A stretch of 32,000 nt of DNA from Promethearchaeum syntrophicum (GTDB taxonomy: Archaea; Asgardarchaeota; Lokiarchaeia; Sigyniarchaeales; Promethearchaeaceae), in assembly GCF_008000775.2 (NCBI RefSeq), contig NZ_CP042905.2:2730001-2762000 (forward strand), given 5' to 3'. Below are positions 8,787 through 32,000 of this stretch, one piece after another (position 1 is the stretch's first letter; each line of letters begins with the position of its first letter). A program made the translations under genes and the position numbers. Under the pieces are notes generated by a model. That model saw nothing but the letters and a program-made list of their open reading frames with translations, searched no databases and was not told where the DNA came from.

Positions 8787-10214
8787 ATGAATTCTATAAT
8801 AAAAATGGAAGAGACAACAACAAAATTAGTTCTATTAGGGAGGGGAGGGGTAGGTAAAACTACGCTAAGAAAAATTTTCTTTGATAGAGAAAGTCCTTTA
8901 GTACTAATAAAAGATAATCTAACACCAACTTTAGGGGCTGAAGTTAATTCCTACAACTTGGGATTGAACATTGCCGTTCATGATTTAGCAGGGCAAGAAT
9001 TAAATCATTGGTTGACTGATGGTAGTGGTGCCTTAGATTTATCTGATATAATCCTTGTTGTTTTAGAGTGTTCAGATGATTGGGATGAAAATCTTCAGAT
9101 TATTAAGCAAGTTCAACAAATTCAATCTAAGAATGTACCCTCAGCCGTCATTATTGCATTCTTTCATAAAATTGATCTGCTAACGAGTCTTCAACTTGAT
9201 ACCTTAAAAGCAAGAATTAATGAATTTCGAGAAAATAATGACTTGAATGTTAAAATCTTTCTAACGAGCATTCAAGAGAAACATATTCTAGAAACATTTT
9301 GGGCATTTATTCAATCATTAAAACTGGGAATGTGTCGTAAAAATAACACAAATTTTCGAGATTATATTCTTAAATTGGAATTACTTAGATATTTTACTAA
9401 AAACTCTAAAGCAGATTTGAATGTTTTAGAGAAAGATTTAAAAATTAAACGTGAATATATTCAGTGGTATCTACATCAACTATTTGGAGATGGAACCCTA
9501 GATTTAGAACCGAATTCTGAAGTTGTTACAATCGGGAAAAAAGGGATTGCAACACTAAATACTCTCAAATACGCTTTAAACCCAAAAACAAAAGAAATTT
9601 TGCTCTCAGAACGAGATTATATTAAAGGAGTTATCCTTTCAGATAAAACTGGGATCCCTTTTTATACTTATGAAGAGGTACCTGGTTTCTTTAATACATT
9701 AGTAGTTGATGAAAGAACTAGTTCGGAACCAGGAATAATTTCGATGTTTTTTGCACAAATTGTGGAGTTTGGTAAGACTATGGATTATAACGGGTTAACC
9801 AATTTCCAATTTGGAGGGCATAATCTAAAGATTGCCTCGCTTCTAAGTAAGGGAGTACTTGCAATTTTTTTTGTTGATAGAATTCAAATTGACCAAGGAA
9901 GCATGAAAATTTTAGAAGAATTTTTAAAATCCGTTTTTACCAATTATGGGGATTCCATTTATAATTATTTTGTTTCTAACAACCCCCTAGATATTGCCCG
10001 ACTTAGTAGAAATCTCAAAGATGATATAGAAAGCTTAGATGTCATCTTAAAATCGCATCATCAGAACAAATCAGAATTTACAAAAGAGAAATTACTCGAA
10101 ATGTATTTAAATCTCACGGAAGAGAAGATGGATAAAATATCTAGTAGGGATATGAAATCACTTTTGTTTCAATATCTAATCATGGAAAGCCCAGACACTT
10201 TGAAAGAAATTTAG
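8787..10214 (+). CDS. Ras-superfamily small GTPase (Rag/Gtr-like) with a probable winged-helix middle region and a roadblock/longin-like C-terminal domain
   Basis: G1 GRGGVGKTT, G2 Thr in PTLGAE, G3 DLAGQE, G4 HKID (His in place of Asn, as in Rag/Gtr GTPases). Residues ~190-260 look wHTH-like. Residues ~275-400 (YIKGVILSDKTGIPFYTYEE...GVLAIFFVD) fit the roadblock/MglB-type alpha-beta pattern. Confidence 0.75.
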   Translation: MNSIIKMEETTTKLVLLGRGGVGKTTLRKIFFDRESPLVLIKDNLTPTLGAEVNSYNLGLNIAVHDLAGQELNHWLTDGSGALDLSDIILVVLECSDDWDENLQIIKQVQQIQSKNVPSAVIIAFFHKIDLLTSLQLDTLKARINEFRENNDLNVKIFLTSIQEKHILETFWAFIQSLKLGMCRKNNTNFRDYILKLELLRYFTKNSKADLNVLEKDLKIKREYIQWYLHQLFGDGTLDLEPNSEVVTIGKKGIATLNTLKYALNPKTKEILLSERDYIKGVILSDKTGIPFYTYEEVPGFFNTLVVDERTSSEPGIISMFFAQIVEFGKTMDYNGLTNFQFGGHNLKIASLLSKGVLAIFFVDRIQIDQGSMKILEEFLKSVFTNYGDSIYNYFVSNNPLDIARLSRNLKDDIESLDVILKSHHQNKSEFTKEKLLEMYLNLTEEKMDKISSRDMKSLLFQYLIMESPDTLKEI

Positions 10215-24243: not shown

Positions 24244-27051
24244 CTATGTTCGTTTTGATTTCTTTATGATATAGGTAATTGCAGCTAAAGAGAGAAAACT
24301 TATTGCCCAAATTTGAAAACCTGCAATAAAATCTCCACCTTCATTAGGATCATCAGTTGGATCATCAGTTGGATCATCAGTGGGATCATCGGTGGGATCA
24401 TCGGTGGGATCATCTGTAGGAGTAGTGGGCTCTACAGTTATAACCTTGCTATACACAGATGAATCTCCATCTACATCACTAACAGTTAATACTGCAGTAT
24501 ATGAACCGGGAACATCATAAATATGAGAAATTCCAGTTGAACCGGTCATATTTGCAGATCCATCCCCAAAATTCCATTGATATGAAAACGGTCCATCACC
24601 CCATATAGTTTTGTCCGTAAAGCTTACTGCTTCATCTTCTTCAATTGTAGATTTATCAACTTCAAAATAACAAATAGGAGAAGTATCATCCAATACCCAT
24701 CGATCATTATCAATGTCATCTCGATATTTTGCAACTTCTACTTCTCCACTCAAAGGCGTTAAATCGATATTAATATTTGGCCAAGTTCCAAAGTCAAACT
24801 CTATATCATCAAAAAACCAAGATATGATTCCAGCAAATTGAATGGAAGCACCCCAATTTATTTTAAAATTTAATCCATAAACAAAATTTAATAATTCCAA
24901 TAATAAAAATTGCTCATCAATTACTTCAGGTACGGTAAATTCAAATTGTATATCCATTGATGTTTGTTCCATATGAATACTTTGTATATTTGAACCAAAA
25001 TATAAATCTGATTCAATATAGCCAGTCAAAACAGGATTTATTATGAACACCACATCTTCAAAGAATAGATCTACTAGGAATGCATATTGTGGTAAATAAT
25101 GTTTTAAAATTTCATCAACATGAACCCCGATTGTGCAATTTAGAATTGTATCAATTATCTGTGGAGTGAATTCCAGATCAACTGAAAGCATTCCATCTAA
25201 GAATTCCATAGAATTTTCATAAGTATCATCCATTCCTATCTCTTCCAATAACATTTGAATAATAGGATTTGAGAAATCAATTGTTAATGAATTGGTAAAA
25301 ACTGCGTTAAAGGATTTTGTGAAGAAAAACATATCGACATCTACGCTAATGTTGAAAAAGTAATCAATAACTAATACTGCTTCATCAGTTTTTATATTGG
25401 TATTTAACGATCCTGTTATATCTTCTCCAGATATTAATTCATTCGGTGTTTCTAAACTAGTTTCTATTGGAACATATAAAGTCACATTAACACTTCTATC
25501 AACATTAAGCACTGCACCTTCAGTTTCTGTTTCTCCTTGAAAAGAAGCAGCTTGTTGCATTAGTTGATCAAAATTTGAATGGATATATGGAATCTCGAAT
25601 ACCTGTAAAACATCATAAGCAAAAGGTGCATAATCAGGGACTGTATATCCATTTATATCATGAACACCTAGTGTAAAAGCATTATTAATAATCTCATAAC
25701 ATAATTGAATTATATCATCGGTGTAAGGATCAATGTAATATTGCCCTAATAGATCGCCTCCAGTATTTCCTACCGCAAATTGATGATTGTAGGTTTCAAC
25801 TGTAAGTATCATTGAAACTACCCCCCCATAGCATGCACATAAATCATCATTATGCAAACTTAAATCTTGATATTGGTAAGATGCAGTATATTTTTCCCCC
25901 AAAAGTGGCCTAAGTTCTTCTGAATTATTTACTTCTTTAGTTAAAATTCCTGTTTCACTTACACCCCATTCATATATAGAATATTCCATTGAATCACGCC
26001 ATTCAGTATCAGATTGAGTATATTCATCATGATTATCGAACACAAAGCGATATGCCCATAAATCTCCAGTATATGAGAAATTCAAATATATTTGAACAAG
26101 TTCAAAATCATCATAATGGATAAATTGATCACCCCAAAATCCATCAGTCCAGACTTCATTCCAATAATATAAATATTGAATACATAGTGAACCCATCCCG
26201 ATTTCCTTATCATATCCATGAATGACTCGACCAAATAATCCATTTGGGTCTGATGTATGATCCGTATCATCATTATCGATTAAAAATGGTTGGTATAATT
26301 CTGCTATATCTTGGGCAGTAAATACATCATTTGTATCAAGAATTTCAATGTTAAATGCAAGAACAGCATCACCCAACTCTTGTGTGTCTTCCTTATAAGT
26401 CCATATTTCATGATAACCTTCTATTGCATGTGGATCTTCATACCACCAGCCAATAGTCCCTAAACTATCATCTGCAAGAGCATCCCATTCAAAAACATTG
26501 AGATACATACAAGATAAAACAGTCCAATCATTAAATAATTCTATTGGTGTGGAAAAATTATACCATGATTCGTCCCCATCTTCAATTTGATATTCGGCTG
26601 TATCCAAATATCGTCCTTGATAATTTAACCATCCATTATATTCAGGTTCTCCAATCCAATAATTTGGAACATATCGAACAAAAATATCACCAGGACTGAG
26701 AGAATCATGATCATCAAATACATACATTGCTGTCAGCTCAATCTTAAGATTTATCCATTCTAATCCAGGAATTAACTCAGAAGGAATAATATCATCTCCC
26801 GTATAAACAGTATCTTCAGGATTCGCATAATGTGTTATATTTCCAACAATATCATCAACATTTGGTGGTGTTGGTTTTACTTCAGTAGCAGGTTGATTAT
26901 CCCATTCATACCTAAAAACTAAATCTGATTCATTTTCAACTACCGTAGAATCTTCAGATGCAGGTTGAACAGCGATAACATTAGAAATATTAATTCCAGC
27001 TCCAATTAATATTCCAATTGAAATTAGAATACCTAAAAATTTCTTCTTCAT
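24244..27051 (-). CDS. Large secreted surface protein with a C-terminal PKD domain, (PTDD)n linker and TM anchor
   Basis: N-terminal signal-like helix (FLGILISIGILIGAGI). PKD consensus FSYQWNFGDGS...HIYDVPGSYTAVLTVSDVDGD. PTDDPTDD... linker. C-terminal IAGFQIWAISFLSLAAITYII-KKSKRT. Confidence 0.8.
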   Translation of the reverse strand: MKKKFLGILISIGILIGAGINISNVIAVQPASEDSTVVENESDLVFRYEWDNQPATEVKPTPPNVDDIVGNITHYANPEDTVYTGDDIIPSELIPGLEWINLKIELTAMYVFDDHDSLSPGDIFVRYVPNYWIGEPEYNGWLNYQGRYLDTAEYQIEDGDESWYNFSTPIELFNDWTVLSCMYLNVFEWDALADDSLGTIGWWYEDPHAIEGYHEIWTYKEDTQELGDAVLAFNIEILDTNDVFTAQDIAELYQPFLIDNDDTDHTSDPNGLFGRVIHGYDKEIGMGSLCIQYLYYWNEVWTDGFWGDQFIHYDDFELVQIYLNFSYTGDLWAYRFVFDNHDEYTQSDTEWRDSMEYSIYEWGVSETGILTKEVNNSEELRPLLGEKYTASYQYQDLSLHNDDLCACYGGVVSMILTVETYNHQFAVGNTGGDLLGQYYIDPYTDDIIQLCYEIINNAFTLGVHDINGYTVPDYAPFAYDVLQVFEIPYIHSNFDQLMQQAASFQGETETEGAVLNVDRSVNVTLYVPIETSLETPNELISGEDITGSLNTNIKTDEAVLVIDYFFNISVDVDMFFFTKSFNAVFTNSLTIDFSNPIIQMLLEEIGMDDTYENSMEFLDGMLSVDLEFTPQIIDTILNCTIGVHVDEILKHYLPQYAFLVDLFFEDVVFIINPVLTGYIESDLYFGSNIQSIHMEQTSMDIQFEFTVPEVIDEQFLLLELLNFVYGLNFKINWGASIQFAGIISWFFDDIEFDFGTWPNINIDLTPLSGEVEVAKYRDDIDNDRWVLDDTSPICYFEVDKSTIEEDEAVSFTDKTIWGDGPFSYQWNFGDGSANMTGSTGISHIYDVPGSYTAVLTVSDVDGDSSVYSKVITVEPTTPTDDPTDDPTDDPTDDPTDDPTDDPNEGGDFIAGFQIWAISFLSLAAITYIIKKSKRT
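24347..24418. repeat. Six tandem 12-bp units (ggatcatcrgtk) encoding the PTDD linker on the minus strand
   Basis: Units read directly at 24347, 24359, 24371, 24383, 24395 and 24407, with wobble-type variation only. Confidence 0.9.
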
Positions 27052-27259
27052 AAAATAATTCGCCTTTTTTGTGTTTTGTTACTTGTTTTTGGTTAGAAAA
27101 CACTTAAATAGGTTTTTTCTGATTTAAAAGGTTTTCTTCTAATTCATTTTAGTTATTTAAAGAAAGTTGAAAGATACTGTAGAAAATATATCATGGAATG
27201 GCATTTTTCGTGCGTAATCTTTAGATAATATAAATTTCATCGGCATGTTTCAAAATCCG

Positions 27260-27430
27260 AAATAATATCAATCAACTTTGATTGGTTATGCTCATAGCAG
27301 AAAAAATTATGGCTACATTTTGTAACACCTGCATGATGGAATCGGAGTTCTTACGCTCAATCGACCCGAAAAGCATAACGCACTCCAATATCCCATGATT
27401 ATGGAGATAATTGATGTGTTTGAATCTATA
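27260..27430. repeat. Right copy of the enoyl-CoA hydratase 5' repeat (decayed)
   Basis: Aligns to 22944-23115. Relative to the left copy it carries ATG to ATA (27294-27296), A7 to A6 (27301-27306) and TAT to TAA (27323-27325). Confidence 0.9.
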
Positions 27431-28078
27431 TTTAAGAAGAAATCAATTCGAGCGATTATTATTAAAGGAAATGGTCCGAGTTTCAGTGCAGGAGATGATT
27501 TAAAAAGTATAGGAAAGGAAGCATTTCGATTTAAACCTTTGAAAGATGGTTCTATATTTCCACACCACCGATTAATTCGACTAATAGGCGATATTCAAAA
27601 ACCCGTTTTTGCATTTTTACATGGTTTTTGCCTTGGTGCCGGATTTGCATTAGCTCTTGCATGTGATTTTAGATTAGCAACCGATAATCTTGAAATGGGC
27701 GATCATCGAATAACACGGGGGATTGCTATGATGAGTGGTACAAGTTGGTTTCTTCCTCGACTAATTGGATTTGGGAAAGCTACGAATTTAATTATGACTG
27801 GACGTCATCTGGATGCTCATGAAGCTTTAAAATATGGAATAATTAATGAAATTTATTCTACTGAGAATTTTAAAGCACAAGCAATGGAGTATGTTCAAAA
27901 AATTGCTTCTTTACCGACCAAAACTTTGAGGTATGATAAGACAATGTTAAATTCCTCACTTTTAAACGACTTAGTCCCTTCCATGCGGCATGAATTTAAC
28001 CTTCACGTGAAAAATATGAGAACTCAGGATTATAGCGAGGATATTGCTTCATTTAGAGAAAAAAAAGCCCAATTTTAA
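27395..28078 (+). pseudogene. Enoyl-CoA hydratase/isomerase (crotonase) gene body, N-terminally truncated by loss of its 5' end
   Basis: Crotonase motifs are retained (FSAGDDL, HGFCLGAGFALALACD, oxyanion-hole region). The first usable in-frame ATG at 27395 omits ~36 N-terminal residues, which are encoded intact only at 22978. Confidence 0.55.
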
Positions 28079-28151
28079 AGGAAAATAATTAGCTAATTCC
28101 TCAACTAAGGAAAGAACACCTTCAGGAGCTAAAACCAAAAGAAAATTATTG

Positions 28152-29087
28152 TTACGTTTTGCGTTTCCCTTTGTAATGTTCGTAGATAGATTCTGAATCT
28201 ATTAGAGAATTAAATCCATCTATAGAAAGTTTATTGATTAATGTATCGAGATGAGCTATTGTAGGAAATTTTTCATTATTATCTAATTTCTGCCATCTAT
28301 CATATGTTTTAATTAATATATCTATGAAATATGCACAAAAAACGCCCCTTTCTGAATCAGATTTTCTGTCTAATGTGTTTTTTGATACTTGAAAACTTAG
28401 ATATCCCCTATAATCAATTGAAAATTCGAAAGTAATTTCATTAATTTCAGTTTCAAAAGTAATCTTTGAGGGCATATATTTTTTTATTTGAGAAATTCGA
28501 ATAGGTATCGTATCTCCTGCATTTTTATCGCTTGTTATTTTCAAAGAACTCCCACATTTTTTTTCTATATCTTTTTCCATTCTTATTTCGCAAATATTCT
28601 TAATCTCATATTTATTAAATATTTTTTCTTGATTCTGACTCTTAAATAAAAGCCAATTTAAGAAATTTTTATCAAAGTGAAAAGGTTTTATGAAGGGATT
28701 ATTATCTTTACCAAGTATATCTTCAAATTCTCCAATTAATTCTCTCATAAAATTACGAGAACTCTTAAAAAAAATAATATTTGGAGATACCATAAATAGA
28801 AACTGTGATGTATTTTCTTTTTTTTTTGATTCAAGATTAATACAATTAATTTTATATAATTCGATTTTGTCAAAAAAATCAATTAATGTAGGCCTTTCAT
28901 TAATCATATAATCTGTAGATTTAAGGTTAACTAACTCTAGATATAATCTATTTGGGTTTTCATCTTTCCAATTTTTGCTTGTAAGTATCCCTTTCATTAA
29001 TTTTACAAGAGGATCTAAAATTGGTTTTTGATATAAGGATGCAATGGTAAATTTACCAAAATCAATTTCTTTTTTTAAATCTGCCAT
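28152..29087 (-). CDS. Hypothetical protein, no recognisable domain
   Basis: The track ORF starts at TTG 29096 and the first ATG is at 29087 (MADLKKEIDF...). It is a long uninterrupted ORF in a stop-codon-rich AT background and is divergent from the NTPase ORF. Confidence 0.6.
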   Translation of the reverse strand: MADLKKEIDFGKFTIASLYQKPILDPLVKLMKGILTSKNWKDENPNRLYLELVNLKSTDYMINERPTLIDFFDKIELYKINCINLESKKKENTSQFLFMVSPNIIFFKSSRNFMRELIGEFEDILGKDNNPFIKPFHFDKNFLNWLLFKSQNQEKIFNKYEIKNICEIRMEKDIEKKCGSSLKITSDKNAGDTIPIRISQIKKYMPSKITFETEINEITFEFSIDYRGYLSFQVSKNTLDRKSDSERGVFCAYFIDILIKTYDRWQKLDNNEKFPTIAHLDTLINKLSIDGFNSLIDSESIYEHYKGKRKT

Positions 29088-29745
29088 AGTTACCAACTCC
29101 CACCTCAGACCAATTTAAAATGATAAAATCCTATTCATATATAAGATTGTTTATTTCTATCGAGTCTTTATTATCTTGTCTTAATTTCATCTCATTAATA
29201 TTAATTGATCGAAGGAATACAAATTAATTCTAAAGGAACTATTTAAAGATCAATAATTCAGTAACATTCTTTTCTGAGTTGTTAAAAAAACTCAATCTTT
29301 TCACATAAGGGAAAAATTCTAAGATAAAAAGAAAATAAATGTTAATTTCTATAACTCTGATATTTTTTTGGTTAACCAAAATCTTTTAATATAAAATTCC
29401 TGCAATTTTTTAGAACAGAGAAAATTGATTCGTAATCACGGATTCTGGAACCCAAATTGTTTCAGTTTCTTTTGATTTTTATTTTTTAATTTCGCCATTT
29501 GGCTTTATTATTTTAGTTTCATTTAAAATGACTCAAGGATCTTTTAATGATTTTCAGTAGCCATTATTTGAAAATGAGATATAATTGGATTAGATATTAT
29601 TTAATTAGAGGATATTCTTTTGATTTAGTATCAATAAGAAAACTAATTTATTTCTTTTCAGAACATAAATGTATTTAAATTCCCATTCATAAAGAATTAA
29701 TGATGTTTTTTGATTAAAATTCAATAAGAAAAAAAGTATTCTAAT

Positions 29746-32000
29746 ATGACAAAACTTGAAGAAGAAATTAAGAATTTTGCGCTTATTAAACGACAAAAAT
29801 TATTATCAAAGAAATTTAACGATAATAAATATATTCAACAGATGAGGCAAGAAAAACATCAATACTTCCTAAAAATAATTGGAAAAAGAGAAAGTATTCC
29901 TAAATGGCAACCGATTGCGAAATCTCTTATTTTATTTTTAGTTTCTATTAAAGAAATTAAAAATCAAATTGATCTTGACAAAATAAGAAAAGAGAGCCCT
30001 TTTTTAAAAAAATATTTAAGAGATAGTCAATTCACAAGTTATTTTAAAGAAAATACATATACTGGAGATAGTATTAGACAATTACTTTCAGATGATATTC
30101 AAAATAAAGTTGATTTAAAACTACAAAAAGAAAAAATAGTTAAAGAACTTGAATCAAAAAAAAAAAAAGATATCTTGGACTTAGAGAGAAAAAAAAAAAA
30201 ACTTATTATTACTGAAAAAAAGAAGAAAGAAGAAATAAAAACATATTTTGAAGAAAAAGAAAAAAATTTTAAATCAATTATCGATGAATCTAAAGAAGAA
30301 TCAGTCGAAAAATTAATAAATTCATACAAAAAAAAATCCAAACCATTTTATTGCTCTGAAGAATGGTGGGAAAGGCTAAATCTTGACGCAAATCCATTTC
30401 CAGGAAATAACATTGGATTACAAGGAATTGATAAGTCCTTATATGAAGAAATTATAATTAAACTCCCTATATATGACAAATATACAAATATTATTGTTAA
30501 TAATCGAAAAAATCTTTTTGGAAAATCTATTTTTCTTTATGCCGATTATGGTGGAGGTAAATCAACTTTTTTTGATTATTTAAATATTGAAATTTTAAAT
30601 GCTGATATTTTACCAATTAAAATATTAATAGATCCAGATATTGATGCTTTCGATATAAAAAAAAATTTTCGAAAACGTTTATACTACAAAATTTCGAAGG
30701 AATTTATTAAAAAATTTGGAGTTTTACCCGATAATGATTATAATATAGAAAATACAGTAAAAAAAATGCAACAACTTATTGATTCAACATTTTATTCTGG
30801 ATTTGTTATCTTTATCGATGGAATTCACAAAACAACCAACCCCAAAGCATCTTTGGAATTTTTGAAGTTGCTTCAAAATACTATTGAATATTTTTTTGAT
30901 GAAGATTTAAAAGTATGCTTAATCGTAGCAGGTAAAAAGGAATGGATAGATCAATTAAAGAAAGGTGGTGAATATTCAGGATCATTTACTATATTTGAAG
31001 AAATGCAAAATCCAAATCCAATACAAGCTTATGAAATGATATATAAAAGATTGAAAGCTTTTTCAAATTCTGAACTATCTTTTGAGAGATATATAAATGA
31101 AAATGATATAAAAAACTTAATTCAAATTATCAGAGAAGAATACAAAAGAAATATTACATTTAGAGATATTATCCAAGAATTCACAGAAAGAATTAAAACT
31201 GATAAACTGGGTCAAATAAAATTATATCTCCGTTTAAATGAAAATGATTTATTTAAAATTTTAGAAAGATTCAAGGTAAATGAAGAAATTTTTTCAAGTT
31301 TAAAAGAAATCTCTCCAAAAAACTACCCAAAAGAAATTTTAAATCTCTTAGGGATAATTGATCAAGAACAAGGGATTCACGAAAATTCAGATTGGTTTAA
31401 AGATAACATAGATTTATTTTCAATACTCTCTAAAAATAACTTAATAATGAAGAAATCTTCTTCTTCTTCGTTTAAATGGATTTTAAAGAAAAAATTTGGA
31501 AAATTGGTTAAAAATATTGAAGAAGATTATGGATACCAATTGAGGCATTATATAAATGATCTATTTACTCTTAGAAAACCGGATCATCAATCTTTTGAAA
31601 ACCAAGTGTTTGAAGAATTAGAAAAACTGAAAAAACTTGCCTATGCTATTGAGCCTTATAAATCTGATTTACTAAATACATACAATTATATAAATGAACC
31701 TTATATGAAGTTATTAAAAGCTTTAAAATATGAAACCTCCTATAAAAATGAAGGATATAAAGGAATTGTTGAACATTCAGAATTTATTTTAATGAGACTT
31801 CTTAATAATATTAAAAAAATAACAAACGAATACGTTTCCCCAGATATTACCCCTGATTTAATTCAAGATTTTAGTCAATCATGGTTATCTAACCAATATT
31901 TAACTGATTTCATTATAGAATTAAATGATCTTAAATCCAAACAGATTTTAATAAAATCTGAAAGAGAAAAATATCTTGTTTCATTTAAAAAATGCTTTAC
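29746..32000 (+). CDS. Large P-loop NTPase (NACHT/STAND-like motifs) with a Lys/Glu-rich N-terminal region; 3' end lies beyond the window
   Basis: Not in the supplied track because it has no stop in the window. I translated every line by hand in the frame of ATG 29746 and found 751 codons with no stop; an in-frame TAA lies upstream at 29725. Walker A LYADYGGGKSTF (30550-30567) is preceded by ANPFPG. Walker B-like FVIFIDGIH (30805-30822). Confidence 0.75.
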   Translation, partial: MTKLEEEIKNFALIKRQKLLSKKFNDNKYIQQMRQEKHQYFLKIIGKRESIPKWQPIAKSLILFLVSIKEIKNQIDLDKIRKESPFLKKYLRDSQFTSYFKENTYTGDSIRQLLSDDIQNKVDLKLQKEKIVKELESKKKKDILDLERKKKKLIITEKKKKEEIKTYFEEKEKNFKSIIDESKEESVEKLINSYKKKSKPFYCSEEWWERLNLDANPFPGNNIGLQGIDKSLYEEIIIKLPIYDKYTNIIVNNRKNLFGKSIFLYADYGGGKSTFFDYLNIEILNADILPIKILIDPDIDAFDIKKNFRKRLYYKISKEFIKKFGVLPDNDYNIENTVKKMQQLIDSTFYSGFVIFIDGIHKTTNPKASLEFLKLLQNTIEYFFDEDLKVCLIVAGKKEWIDQLKKGGEYSGSFTIFEEMQNPNPIQAYEMIYKRLKAFSNSELSFERYINENDIKNLIQIIREEYKRNITFRDIIQEFTERIKTDKLGQIKLYLRLNENDLFKILERFKVNEEIFSSLKEISPKNYPKEILNLLGIIDQEQGIHENSDWFKDNIDLFSILSKNNLIMKKSSSSSFKWILKKKFGKLVKNIEEDYGYQLRHYINDLFTLRKPDHQSFENQVFEELEKLKKLAYAIEPYKSDLLNTYNYINEPYMKLLKALKYETSYKNEGYKGIVEHSEFILMRLLNNIKKITNEYVSPDITPDLIQDFSQSWLSNQYLTDFIIELNDLKSKQILIKSEREKYLVSFKKCF

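Follow-up and report, generated by a model that had tools for sequence, protein, structure and literature searches.

What is the function of the large P-loop nucleoside triphosphatase (NTPase) whose gene runs off the right end of a 32,000-nucleotide stretch of Promethearchaeum syntrophicum MK-D1 DNA (contig NZ_CP042905.2, positions 2,730,001 to 2,762,000; hereafter the window), and does it work together with the 311-residue protein encoded divergently beside it? A sequence-only reading of this DNA had proposed an immune-type P-loop sensor of the NACHT/STAND kind, forming with that neighbour a two-gene sensor/effector system. We find that the NTPase of MK-D1, a cultured Lokiarchaeon among the Asgard archaea, very probably belongs to a conflict/defence family, as judged from the swapping of effector domains (TIR, Shedu, Schlafen, metallophosphoesterase), from defence-island neighbourhoods and from a low-G+C island, all of which also support the immune-type part of the earlier proposal. 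We moderately favour the view that it is a stand-alone, single-protein defence-type ATPase with a built-in C-terminal effector.

A truncated reading frame belongs to an unnamed family

From the ATG at position 29746 to the window edge at 32000, on the + strand, translation gives 751 sense codons and zero stops, a run expected by chance with a probability of ~2e-32 at 0.093 stops per codon (local base composition). This confirms the frame reported in the sequence-only reading, which was missing from the open reading frame (ORF) track because the ORF lister omits ORFs running off the source. The 751 codons correspond with 100% identity to the first 751 residues of DSAG12_03012, a protein of 1045 residues annotated "hypothetical protein"; the stretch 29746..32000 (+) is the 5' part of this 1045-codon gene, which ends ~883 nt past the window.

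Neither the window fragment nor the full NTPase had a match at threshold in Pfam, NCBIfam or PADLOC (best match AAA_22, E = 0.009). A word-indexed search of 5.8 billion proteins returned the NTPase itself and one relative, P0002 (1211 residues, 29% identity, colinear along the full length), and the same pair, just the NTPase and one relative, came back when a 45-sequence profile was used as the query. An exhaustive HMMER search with a two-sequence profile, from which the coiled coil and the extra tail of P0002 had been removed, yielded 301 cluster representatives at E <= 1e-3, 242 at E <= 1e-10 and 163 at E <= 1e-30, i.e. a family of ~300 when counted as protein clusters at 50% identity. The representatives are mostly 1020-1090 residues long, typically ~1040, and are matched from about residue 180 to the C-terminus; members with source names are called "hypothetical protein" or "ATP-binding protein". 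All taxon-labelled members are archaeal (Asgard, Thermoplasmatota (twice) and Nitrososphaerota); most members are unlabelled metagenomic sequences, and the archaeal range is that of the labelled ones.

No family member was found in 2.9 million IMG/VR viral contigs or in PLSDB plasmids, and searches of the PDB by single sequence and by profile returned noise only (coiled-coil, designed-helix and G-alpha proteins). With PADLOC v2.0.0, the MK-D1 NTPase (P0001) had no match at E <= 1, and the sole recurrent matches over 45 members were weak ones to mad8 (7/45, best E = 2e-4). The scan for known defence ATPases proposed by the sequence-only reading was thus negative at threshold for the MK-D1 NTPase and for the ATPase of its relatives, and positive for the tail of P0002, which is SduA. 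No account of this architecture was found in the searchable literature. The family is unnamed and missing from PADLOC v2, Pfam and NCBIfam, and it might coincide with one of the at least 90 STAND families of PMC13581612.

Appended effector domains and an intact R/R/H triad exclude each other

Past the window, the AlphaFold2 (AF2) model places a helical bundle at residues 795-945, which carries R811, R865 and H909 (the R/R/H triad). Using a MAFFT alignment of 115 full-length members, we compared the residues at six positions of the ATPase and six of the C-terminal part with the length by which a member is extended at either terminus. About 100 of the 115 members display E-R-G-N-R-H at 807/811/823/858/865/909 and have no extension. 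The triad is degenerate in 10/10 members with a C-terminal tail of at least 60 residues and in both scorable members with a ~530-residue N-terminal extension, that is, in 12/12 scorable extended members versus 6/102 unextended ones, four of these six being the conservative R811K. The extended members all retain K272, D/E358, Q377, R435 and R473.

The tail of P0002 is a Shedu SduA (DUF4263) nuclease domain (PADLOC, E = 5e-23). Pfam identifies TIR extensions in P0083 (3.6e-29, with a second, ThsB/CAP12-like TIR), P0013 (1.8e-27), P0036 (5.7e-23), P0135 (5.7e-7) and, weakly, P0031; Schlafen/AlbA_2 extensions in P0031 (7.6e-8) and P0039 (5.5e-5); and N-terminal calcineurin-like metallophosphoesterases in P0136 (4e-13) and P0148 (1.6e-18). 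The ~530-residue N-terminal extension of P0131, inspected by eye and not scanned, has metallophosphoesterase motifs as in P0136; the 60-residue tail of P0019 was not scanned. P0032 and P0037 have in common a C-terminal tail of ~190 residues (…ERRDA…VVEFKN…) with no Pfam match, which by eye looks like a PD-(D/E)xK restriction endonuclease. One 7-member clade of the ATPase tree mixes TIR, Schlafen and nuclease-like tails.

The simplest reading of these sequence patterns is that the R/R/H bundle would be an ancestral built-in, replaceable effector, decaying once another immune effector is fused. We regard it as an effector rather than a sensor because a sensor site would be expected to persist upon the addition of an effector. 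The sequence-only reading had anticipated that the effector or sensor part might lie beyond position 32000, and this putative effector bundle does fall there.

Domain layout and conserved residues

The full-length AF2 model was built on the family alignment (mean predicted local distance difference test score, pLDDT, 82), and residues 770-1045 were modelled separately (pLDDT 94, predicted template modelling score 0.91). Invariance was scored in the 45 members without extra domains, in which P217, G269, G271, K272, Q377, R435, R473, R811, R865 and H909 never vary. Over the 115 members, the conserved positions are W207-W208..L213..P217-F218-P219....G224-L225, the Walker A motif G266..G269-x-G271-K272-T-T, the Walker B motif hhhhD358-[D/G]-L-H361-K362, then F372, L376, Q377, G396, W400, G412, R435 and R473, and the C-terminal set E807, R811, G823, N858, R865, Y868, H909 and N938.

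The protein begins, in the AF2 model, with an N-terminal helical domain (residues 1-103; 29746..30054; this and the following features are on the + strand), with conserved F11 (86%), A58 and F86, which is a possible sensor or adaptor. It is followed by a Lys/Glu-rich long helix or linker of low model confidence (residues 104-204; 30055..30357). The ~200-residue Lys/Glu-rich, coiled-coil N-terminus of the sequence-only reading therefore stands for about residues 104-204 and gives way, over residues 1-103, to a confidently predicted and family-conserved helical domain. The Lys-rich linker is encoded across two A13 tracts (30156-30168 and 30189-30201), the longest A runs of the window; judging from their sequence, they could be prone to slippage, leading to phase-variable expression of the NTPase. 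A Thermoplasmatota homologue (L002 1763-2773) apparently begins at MEWWQRLNL…, without the N-terminal domain and the coiled coil, and these parts are therefore dispensable in some members.

The AAA+ P-loop alpha/beta core (residues 205-445; 30358..31080), delineated from the alignment, AF2 and Foldseek, opens with the family signature WW..L.L..(D/N)PFP....GL (residues 207-225; 30364..30420; W207 99%, P217 100%, F218 98%) and includes the invariant Q377 (30874-30876) and R435 (31048-31050). Walker A is ADYGGGKST (residues 266-274; 30541..30567; consensus G-x-F-G-S-G-K-T-T, K272 invariant) and Walker B FVIFIDGIHK (residues 353-362; 30802..30831; consensus hhhhD-[D/G]-L-H-K, D358 98%); both motifs, as well as DANPFPG (residues 215-220), are present as the sequence-only reading had listed them. 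After D358, the family has D in 57/115 members and G in 50/115, then H in 103/115 and K in 106/115, the MK-D1 version being D-G-I-H-K. The core is followed by a helical lid (residues 452-520; 31099..31305; alignment and AF2) with the invariant R473 (31162-31164), likely the sensor-2 arginine, and by a winged-helix domain (residues 529-595; 31330..31530; AF2 and Foldseek) that completes an ORC/Cdc6- or NOD-like module.

Beyond the ATPase module, the MK-D1 model consists of non-repetitive helical domains. A variable helical domain (residues 620-790), only the start of which is inside the window (31603..32000), precedes the R/R/H bundle, and the protein ends, past the window, in a small alpha/beta domain (residues 950-1045), a winged helix by AF2; Foldseek likewise recognises its terminal ~70 residues as a winged helix, with KAT6A WH, Z-alpha and SmtB as similar structures. 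Mean pairwise identity is 17% in the 620-790 domain, the least conserved folded module, 26% in the R/R/H bundle and 31% in the P-loop core.

An AAA+ module leaning towards Orc1/Cdc6

When the full model is compared with the PDB using Foldseek, archaeal Orc1/Cdc6 proteins come first (2v1u, 1w5t, 2qby, 1fnn; E = 2.5e-5 to 1e-4; template modelling score on target 0.41-0.49), followed by eukaryotic ORC/Cdc6, Apaf-1 (1.2e-4) and the plant NLR ZAR1 (2e-3), all with 10-15% identity. The tripartite NOD layout (P-loop nucleotide-binding domain, helical domain, winged helix) is present in the AF2 model, with Orc1/Cdc6 scoring slightly above Apaf-1. Scanned individually, the 45 members gave sub-threshold Pfam matches to AAA_22 (34), AAA_16 (24), ATPase_2 (10), NPHP3_N (8) and BrxC_BrxD (7), while NACHT, NB-ARC, KAP and nSTAND matched one or two members each. 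The family Walker B form D-D-L-H resembles the AAA_16 form "DDLHW", and the arginine pattern of the lid helix resembles that of Orc1/Cdc6. As modelled, the NTPase is a large P-loop AAA+ switch of the ORC/Cdc6-STAND type, and the family to which it belongs is one that no profile yet covers.

The NACHT label of the sequence-only reading did not survive: the PF05729 profile touches 1/45 members (E = 1.1e-3), the MK-D1 protein not being among them, and the Walker B motif is D-[D/G]-L-H-K, not DGhDE. Lacking both a near-threshold profile match and an hhhhDGhDE extended Walker B, a NACHT identity is rejected. The same holds for the BREX proteins BrxC/PglY (DUF499), with BrxC_BrxD matching 7/45 members at E >= 1.5e-3, no PADLOC BrxC and a single BrxF match (1/45, E = 0.008); no recurring BREX genes were found among the family neighbours. 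KAP NTPases were rejected as well (profile matches in 1/45 members, a modelled P-loop core without inserted transmembrane helices).

The sequence-only reading had also asked whether the protein is a housekeeping Orc1/Cdc6. The best fold matches point in that direction; against it stand the 10-15% identity, the ~650 extra residues and the lack of any Orc/Cdc6-specific profile among the 24 Pfam families matched by any of the 45 members (one Bac_DnaA match, 1/45). We therefore read the similarity as common descent of the ATPase module and do not place the protein among the housekeeping Orc1/Cdc6 proteins, also because the family is patchily distributed and the gene lies in a compositional island.

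Nature of the R/R/H bundle

No Pfam family other than HEPN_Swt1 matches two or more of the isolated C-terminal modules (3/34, best E = 9.9e-5, below the 27.5-bit cut-off); for P0002 HEPN_Swt1 gives E = 0.13, also below this cut-off. The family pattern E..LR.f..N....YG..W ... NW..F ... H resembles Swt1-like HEPN sequences. H909 is conserved at 87% over all members and does not vary in unextended ones, and the conserved arginines, R811 and R865, lie elsewhere in the bundle. In the model of residues 770-1045, R865 begins one helix and H909 closes the next, antiparallel one; from these helix positions, the two residues are probably adjacent in space. A PDB sequence-profile search with the bundle found nothing.

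Precedent comes from the HEPN census of Anantharaman et al. 2013 (PMC3710099): in Ava_2192 a Swt1-like HEPN is joined to a DUF499-like AAA+ ATPase, HEPN is also fused to STAND modules, and one HEPN family "conserves H but lacks R". The R/R/H bundle is possibly HEPN-derived, a question on which we are about evenly divided; we keep the HEPN likeness as a lead and do not classify the bundle as HEPN. That the effector is a HEPN-like RNase is a more specific claim, which we put forward tentatively and hold to be somewhat doubtful.

Defence islands without a conserved partner gene

We assembled 83 loci carrying family members. Clustering of their neighbouring ORFs revealed no conserved partner gene: the most recurrent neighbour is present in 5/83 loci, and a large helicase in 4/83. 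Within two genes of the NTPase, we observed Schlafen/AlbA_2 proteins (6), OLD/Gabija/AriA-type ATPases, PbeA, CHAT, TIR, type I restriction-modification (R-M) and ResIII genes, together with ordinary metabolic genes; CRISPR RAMP genes and HEPN proteins also occur nearby. These neighbourhoods are defence islands. In the window itself, the G+C content (GC) is 0.24-0.25 across both genes (28001-32000) as against 0.32 over the first 28 kb, with a sharp drop at the start of the two-gene region; this composition suggests a horizontally acquired island whose far boundary would lie past the window.

Of the 31 loci whose upstream sequence spans at least 3 kb, three have a helicase directly upstream of the NTPase, and two of these three are near-identical to each other. 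These helicase-like genes, of ~1770 residues and co-directional with the NTPase, lie at 622-5937 in L007, at 2594-7906 in L009 and also at 4594-7710 in L040. In two of these loci, L007 and L009, whose NTPases rank among the nearest metagenomic relatives of the MK-D1 protein, the helicase gene and the start of the NTPase gene overlap by 8 nt; this suggests an operon confined to that subclade. Being subclade-specific (3/31 loci), the helicase is rejected as the family's partner. Five loci, most of them from a single metagenome series, have related ORFs, of ~303 residues where complete, beside the NTPase (directly downstream in L011, L012, L015 and L025, directly upstream, as a 629-residue ORF, in L016); these ORFs may be a subclade-specific accessory gene. 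Beside the Nitrososphaerota member, L003 encodes a 270-residue CBS + Swt1-like HEPN protein with a canonical ELRNEVSHQ motif (8852-9664), with an IS240-type transposase and a 1052-residue DEAD/ResIII helicase nearby.

The 311-residue neighbour is not the partner of the NTPase

The 311-residue protein DSAG12_03011 is encoded at 28152..29087 on the - strand (314 residues if translation began at an alternative TTG at 29096), adjoins the NTPase and is a near-orphan. Its divergent orientation across a 658-nt AT-rich spacer (29088..29745, GC 0.228) is as the sequence-only reading described; the spacer contains no Rfam match, tRNA, terminator or promoter excess, nor any repeat above chance. No homologue of the protein was found in the 5.8-billion-sequence index, in the PDB or in phage records. 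One colinear remote relative exists (18% identity over 199 residues, pairwise E = 1e-10, database E = 3e-3), a 342-residue hypothetical protein of the Halobaculum roseum megaplasmid NZ_CP082287.1 (169562-170590; L084 6710-7738). It lies in a defence island, downstream of R-M genes and within a run of co-directional hypothetical genes, the last of which has a Shedu SduA domain; the run may be an uncharacterised defence cassette.

The proposal that the NTPase and the 311-residue protein form a two-gene sensor/effector system draws on their adjacency, divergent orientation and common low GC, on the remote relative being encoded close to a Shedu gene in a defence island of a haloarchaeon, and on a weak PADLOC PD-Lambda-2_A match (E = 0.006). 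It is contradicted by the family loci. Across all 83 of them, tblastn with the 311-residue protein gave nothing at E <= 1, and a two-sequence profile of the protein and its relative gave nothing at E <= 10; the Halobaculum locus, in turn, contains no family NTPase. With 0/83 loci carrying a relative, no homologue in the 5.8-billion index and a top recurrent neighbour in just 5/83 loci, the two-gene system is so improbable that we abandon it: on the sequence data, the 311-residue protein is not the partner of the NTPase, and its gene may be an independent defence-island gene.

Proposed mechanism and alternatives

By analogy with Avs/NLR-type STAND proteins and ORC/Cdc6 switches, from which we infer defence function, oligomerisation, nuclease chemistry and the identity of the sensor, the NTPase could work as follows. 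Its ORC/Cdc6-STAND-type AAA+ module (P-loop core, lid and winged helix) would be an ATP-dependent switch, with the trigger read probably by the variable domain at residues 620-790 and/or the conserved N-terminal domain. The trigger would induce oligomerisation of the ATP-bound protein, which would join and activate the C-terminal bundles (residues 795-945; R811/R865/H909 with E807 and N858) or, in variants, the appended TIR, Shedu, Schlafen or metallophosphoesterase domains, effector types that generally act as multimers. If it is the effector, the bundle would most likely be a non-canonical Swt1-HEPN-like nuclease acting on RNA; once activated, it would harm RNA or another cellular target, resulting in growth arrest or abortive infection. 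For the terminal winged helix, nucleic-acid binding is a possibility.

Several observations weigh against this reading. The association between extension and triad loss (Fisher p = 3e-12) includes no correction for phylogeny, and the neighbour-joining tree built on the ATPase core, in which extended members occupy at least five separate positions, has no support values. The canonical HEPN motif Rx4-6H is absent, with no Arg conserved 5-7 residues before H909 (MK-D1 has R-x7-H); for the bundle, Foldseek returned neither a PDB nor a viral analogue; and hhalign against two HEPN-bearing neighbour proteins gave probabilities of 0.3% and 1.9%. Pfam scans of the NTPase and the 45 members revealed no classical repeat-type sensor family (TPR, LRR, WD40). 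Lastly, the D-G in place of D-D/E in the MK-D1 Walker B, as in about half of the family, suggests slow ATP hydrolysis, yet this would fit a switch.

The absence of a recognised enzyme fold and of the canonical HEPN motif could also mean that the protein is of immune type and that the R/R/H bundle serves as a sensor that binds a ligand or nucleic acid, or as a regulatory site. R/R/H sites frequently bind phosphates, and two winged helices are present; in that case, unextended proteins would work by another route, for example via ATPase-driven DNA action through these winged helices, or via a factor recruited in trans. Such a sensor should, however, be kept when an effector is added, and the site is lost in 12/12 effector-bearing members at the five or more tree positions; moreover, the bundle is better conserved (26%) than residues 620-790 (17%), the reverse of what is usual for a specificity-determining sensor. 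We consider a sensor bundle unlikely. We are about as reserved towards a more far-reaching version of the effector reading, in which archaea would have recruited an initiator-like (ORC/Cdc6-type) AAA+ switch into immunity independently, apart from the STAND/NLR lineage, with the bundle as a new effector fold or chemistry instead of a HEPN RNase.

Readings outside immunity fare less well. The protein could be a signalling or transcription-regulating ATPase, STAND-like and of the MalT/AfsR AAA_16 type, that binds DNA through its winged helices; this would agree with the sub-threshold AAA_16 matches (24/45), with the AAA_16-like Walker B form and with the C-terminal winged helix. The fusions to TIR, Shedu, Schlafen and metallophosphoesterase are immune hallmarks, though, and the neighbourhoods are defence islands, not regulated operons, with a low-GC island in MK-D1, making a regulator improbable. 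Still less probable, in our estimate, is a housekeeping or mobile-element paralogue of Orc1/Cdc6-type replication initiators or loaders. The best structural matches are indeed archaeal and eukaryotic Orc1/Cdc6 (E = 2.5e-5 to 1e-3), AAA_22, which covers TniB/TnsC-like transposition ATPases, is the commonest weak Pfam match, and both the low-GC island and the IS element near the L003 homologue would suit a mobile element. But beyond the low identity, the extra residues and the missing Orc/Cdc6 profile, the family has immune effector fusions, no conserved transposase or replication neighbour, and no member in the viral contigs or PLSDB.

Other features of the window

Next to the low-GC region, a crotonase-like ORF (27395-28078, 227 residues; region 27053-28078) has an N-terminal disruption: the upstream frame ...YIL*HLHDGIGVLTLNRPEKHNAL... 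contains an in-frame stop ahead of the conserved N-terminal strand, and the first start codon M is at 27395. By eye, a 935-residue ORF on the - strand (24244-27051) has a hydrophobic segment at its N-terminus and a hydrophobic anchor at its C-terminus, as well as a PKD-like stretch and a (PTDD)n repeat, and from its sequence the product looks like a secreted or surface-located protein.

Comparison with known systems and significance

Single-protein AAA+/STAND immune sensors with swappable effectors are known already, and the family differs from them in four traits: its ATPase leans towards Orc1/Cdc6 and has signature motifs of its own, it lacks a repeat-type sensor, its C-terminal R/R/H bundle has no recognised fold, and its distribution, which includes a cultured Asgard archaeon, is apparently archaeal. 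With the antiviral STAND NTPases (Avs1-21, bNACHT, NLR-like), it shares the single large protein with a NOD-like ATP switch, the exchange of effectors among relatives (TIR, nucleases, Schlafen-like) and the defence-island setting. Unlike them, it has no PADLOC Avs or NACHT match and no repeat-type C-terminal sensor; its presumed effector is C-terminal whereas theirs is N-terminal, and its own signature comprises WW..L.L..PFP, D-[D/G]-L-H-K and the invariant Q377/R435/R473. In fold, the module of P-loop, lid and winged helix is best matched by Orc1/Cdc6 proteins, but the family adds to this an N-terminal domain, a coiled coil and ~450 C-terminal residues, and differs from them in its patchy distribution, compositional island and immune effector fusions.

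Ava_2192 (PMC3710099) likewise combines an AAA+ ATPase with a Swt1-family HEPN-type module in conflict loci, in line with the weak family matches to BrxC_BrxD (DUF499-related, 7/45) and HEPN_Swt1 (2-3 members). Its HEPN is N-terminal, the opposite order to that of the family, and has a canonical active Rx4-6H, of which the family conserves only the His; moreover, Ava_2192 is bacterial and encoded in R-M operons with a SNF2 helicase, unlike the family. The closest sequence profiles, AAA_16, ATPase_2 ("archaeal ATPase") and AAA_22, with a best E of about 1e-7 and all below curated cut-offs, are broad catch-alls that imply no function. As for Shedu (SduA, DUF4263 nuclease), a bona fide domain ends P0002 and is lacking in the MK-D1 protein, and canonical Shedu has no AAA+ module of the family's kind.

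Note that what appeared to be an orphan under a word-indexed search of 5.8 billion sequences became a family only by exhaustive profile search. If the inference of a defence function holds, ~300 clusters of single-protein immune ATPases would be added to the archaeal repertoire. The natural swap of TIR, Shedu, Schlafen or metallophosphoesterase for the R/R/H bundle indicates a specific, mutable putative catalytic site. The ATPase module is structurally between Orc1/Cdc6 and Apaf-1/NLR, and bears on the kinship of NLR-like immunity and initiator ATPases; with a member present in the cultured Lokiarchaeon MK-D1, the recruitment of an initiator-type switch into immunity, if true, would be directly testable in a close relative of eukaryotes.

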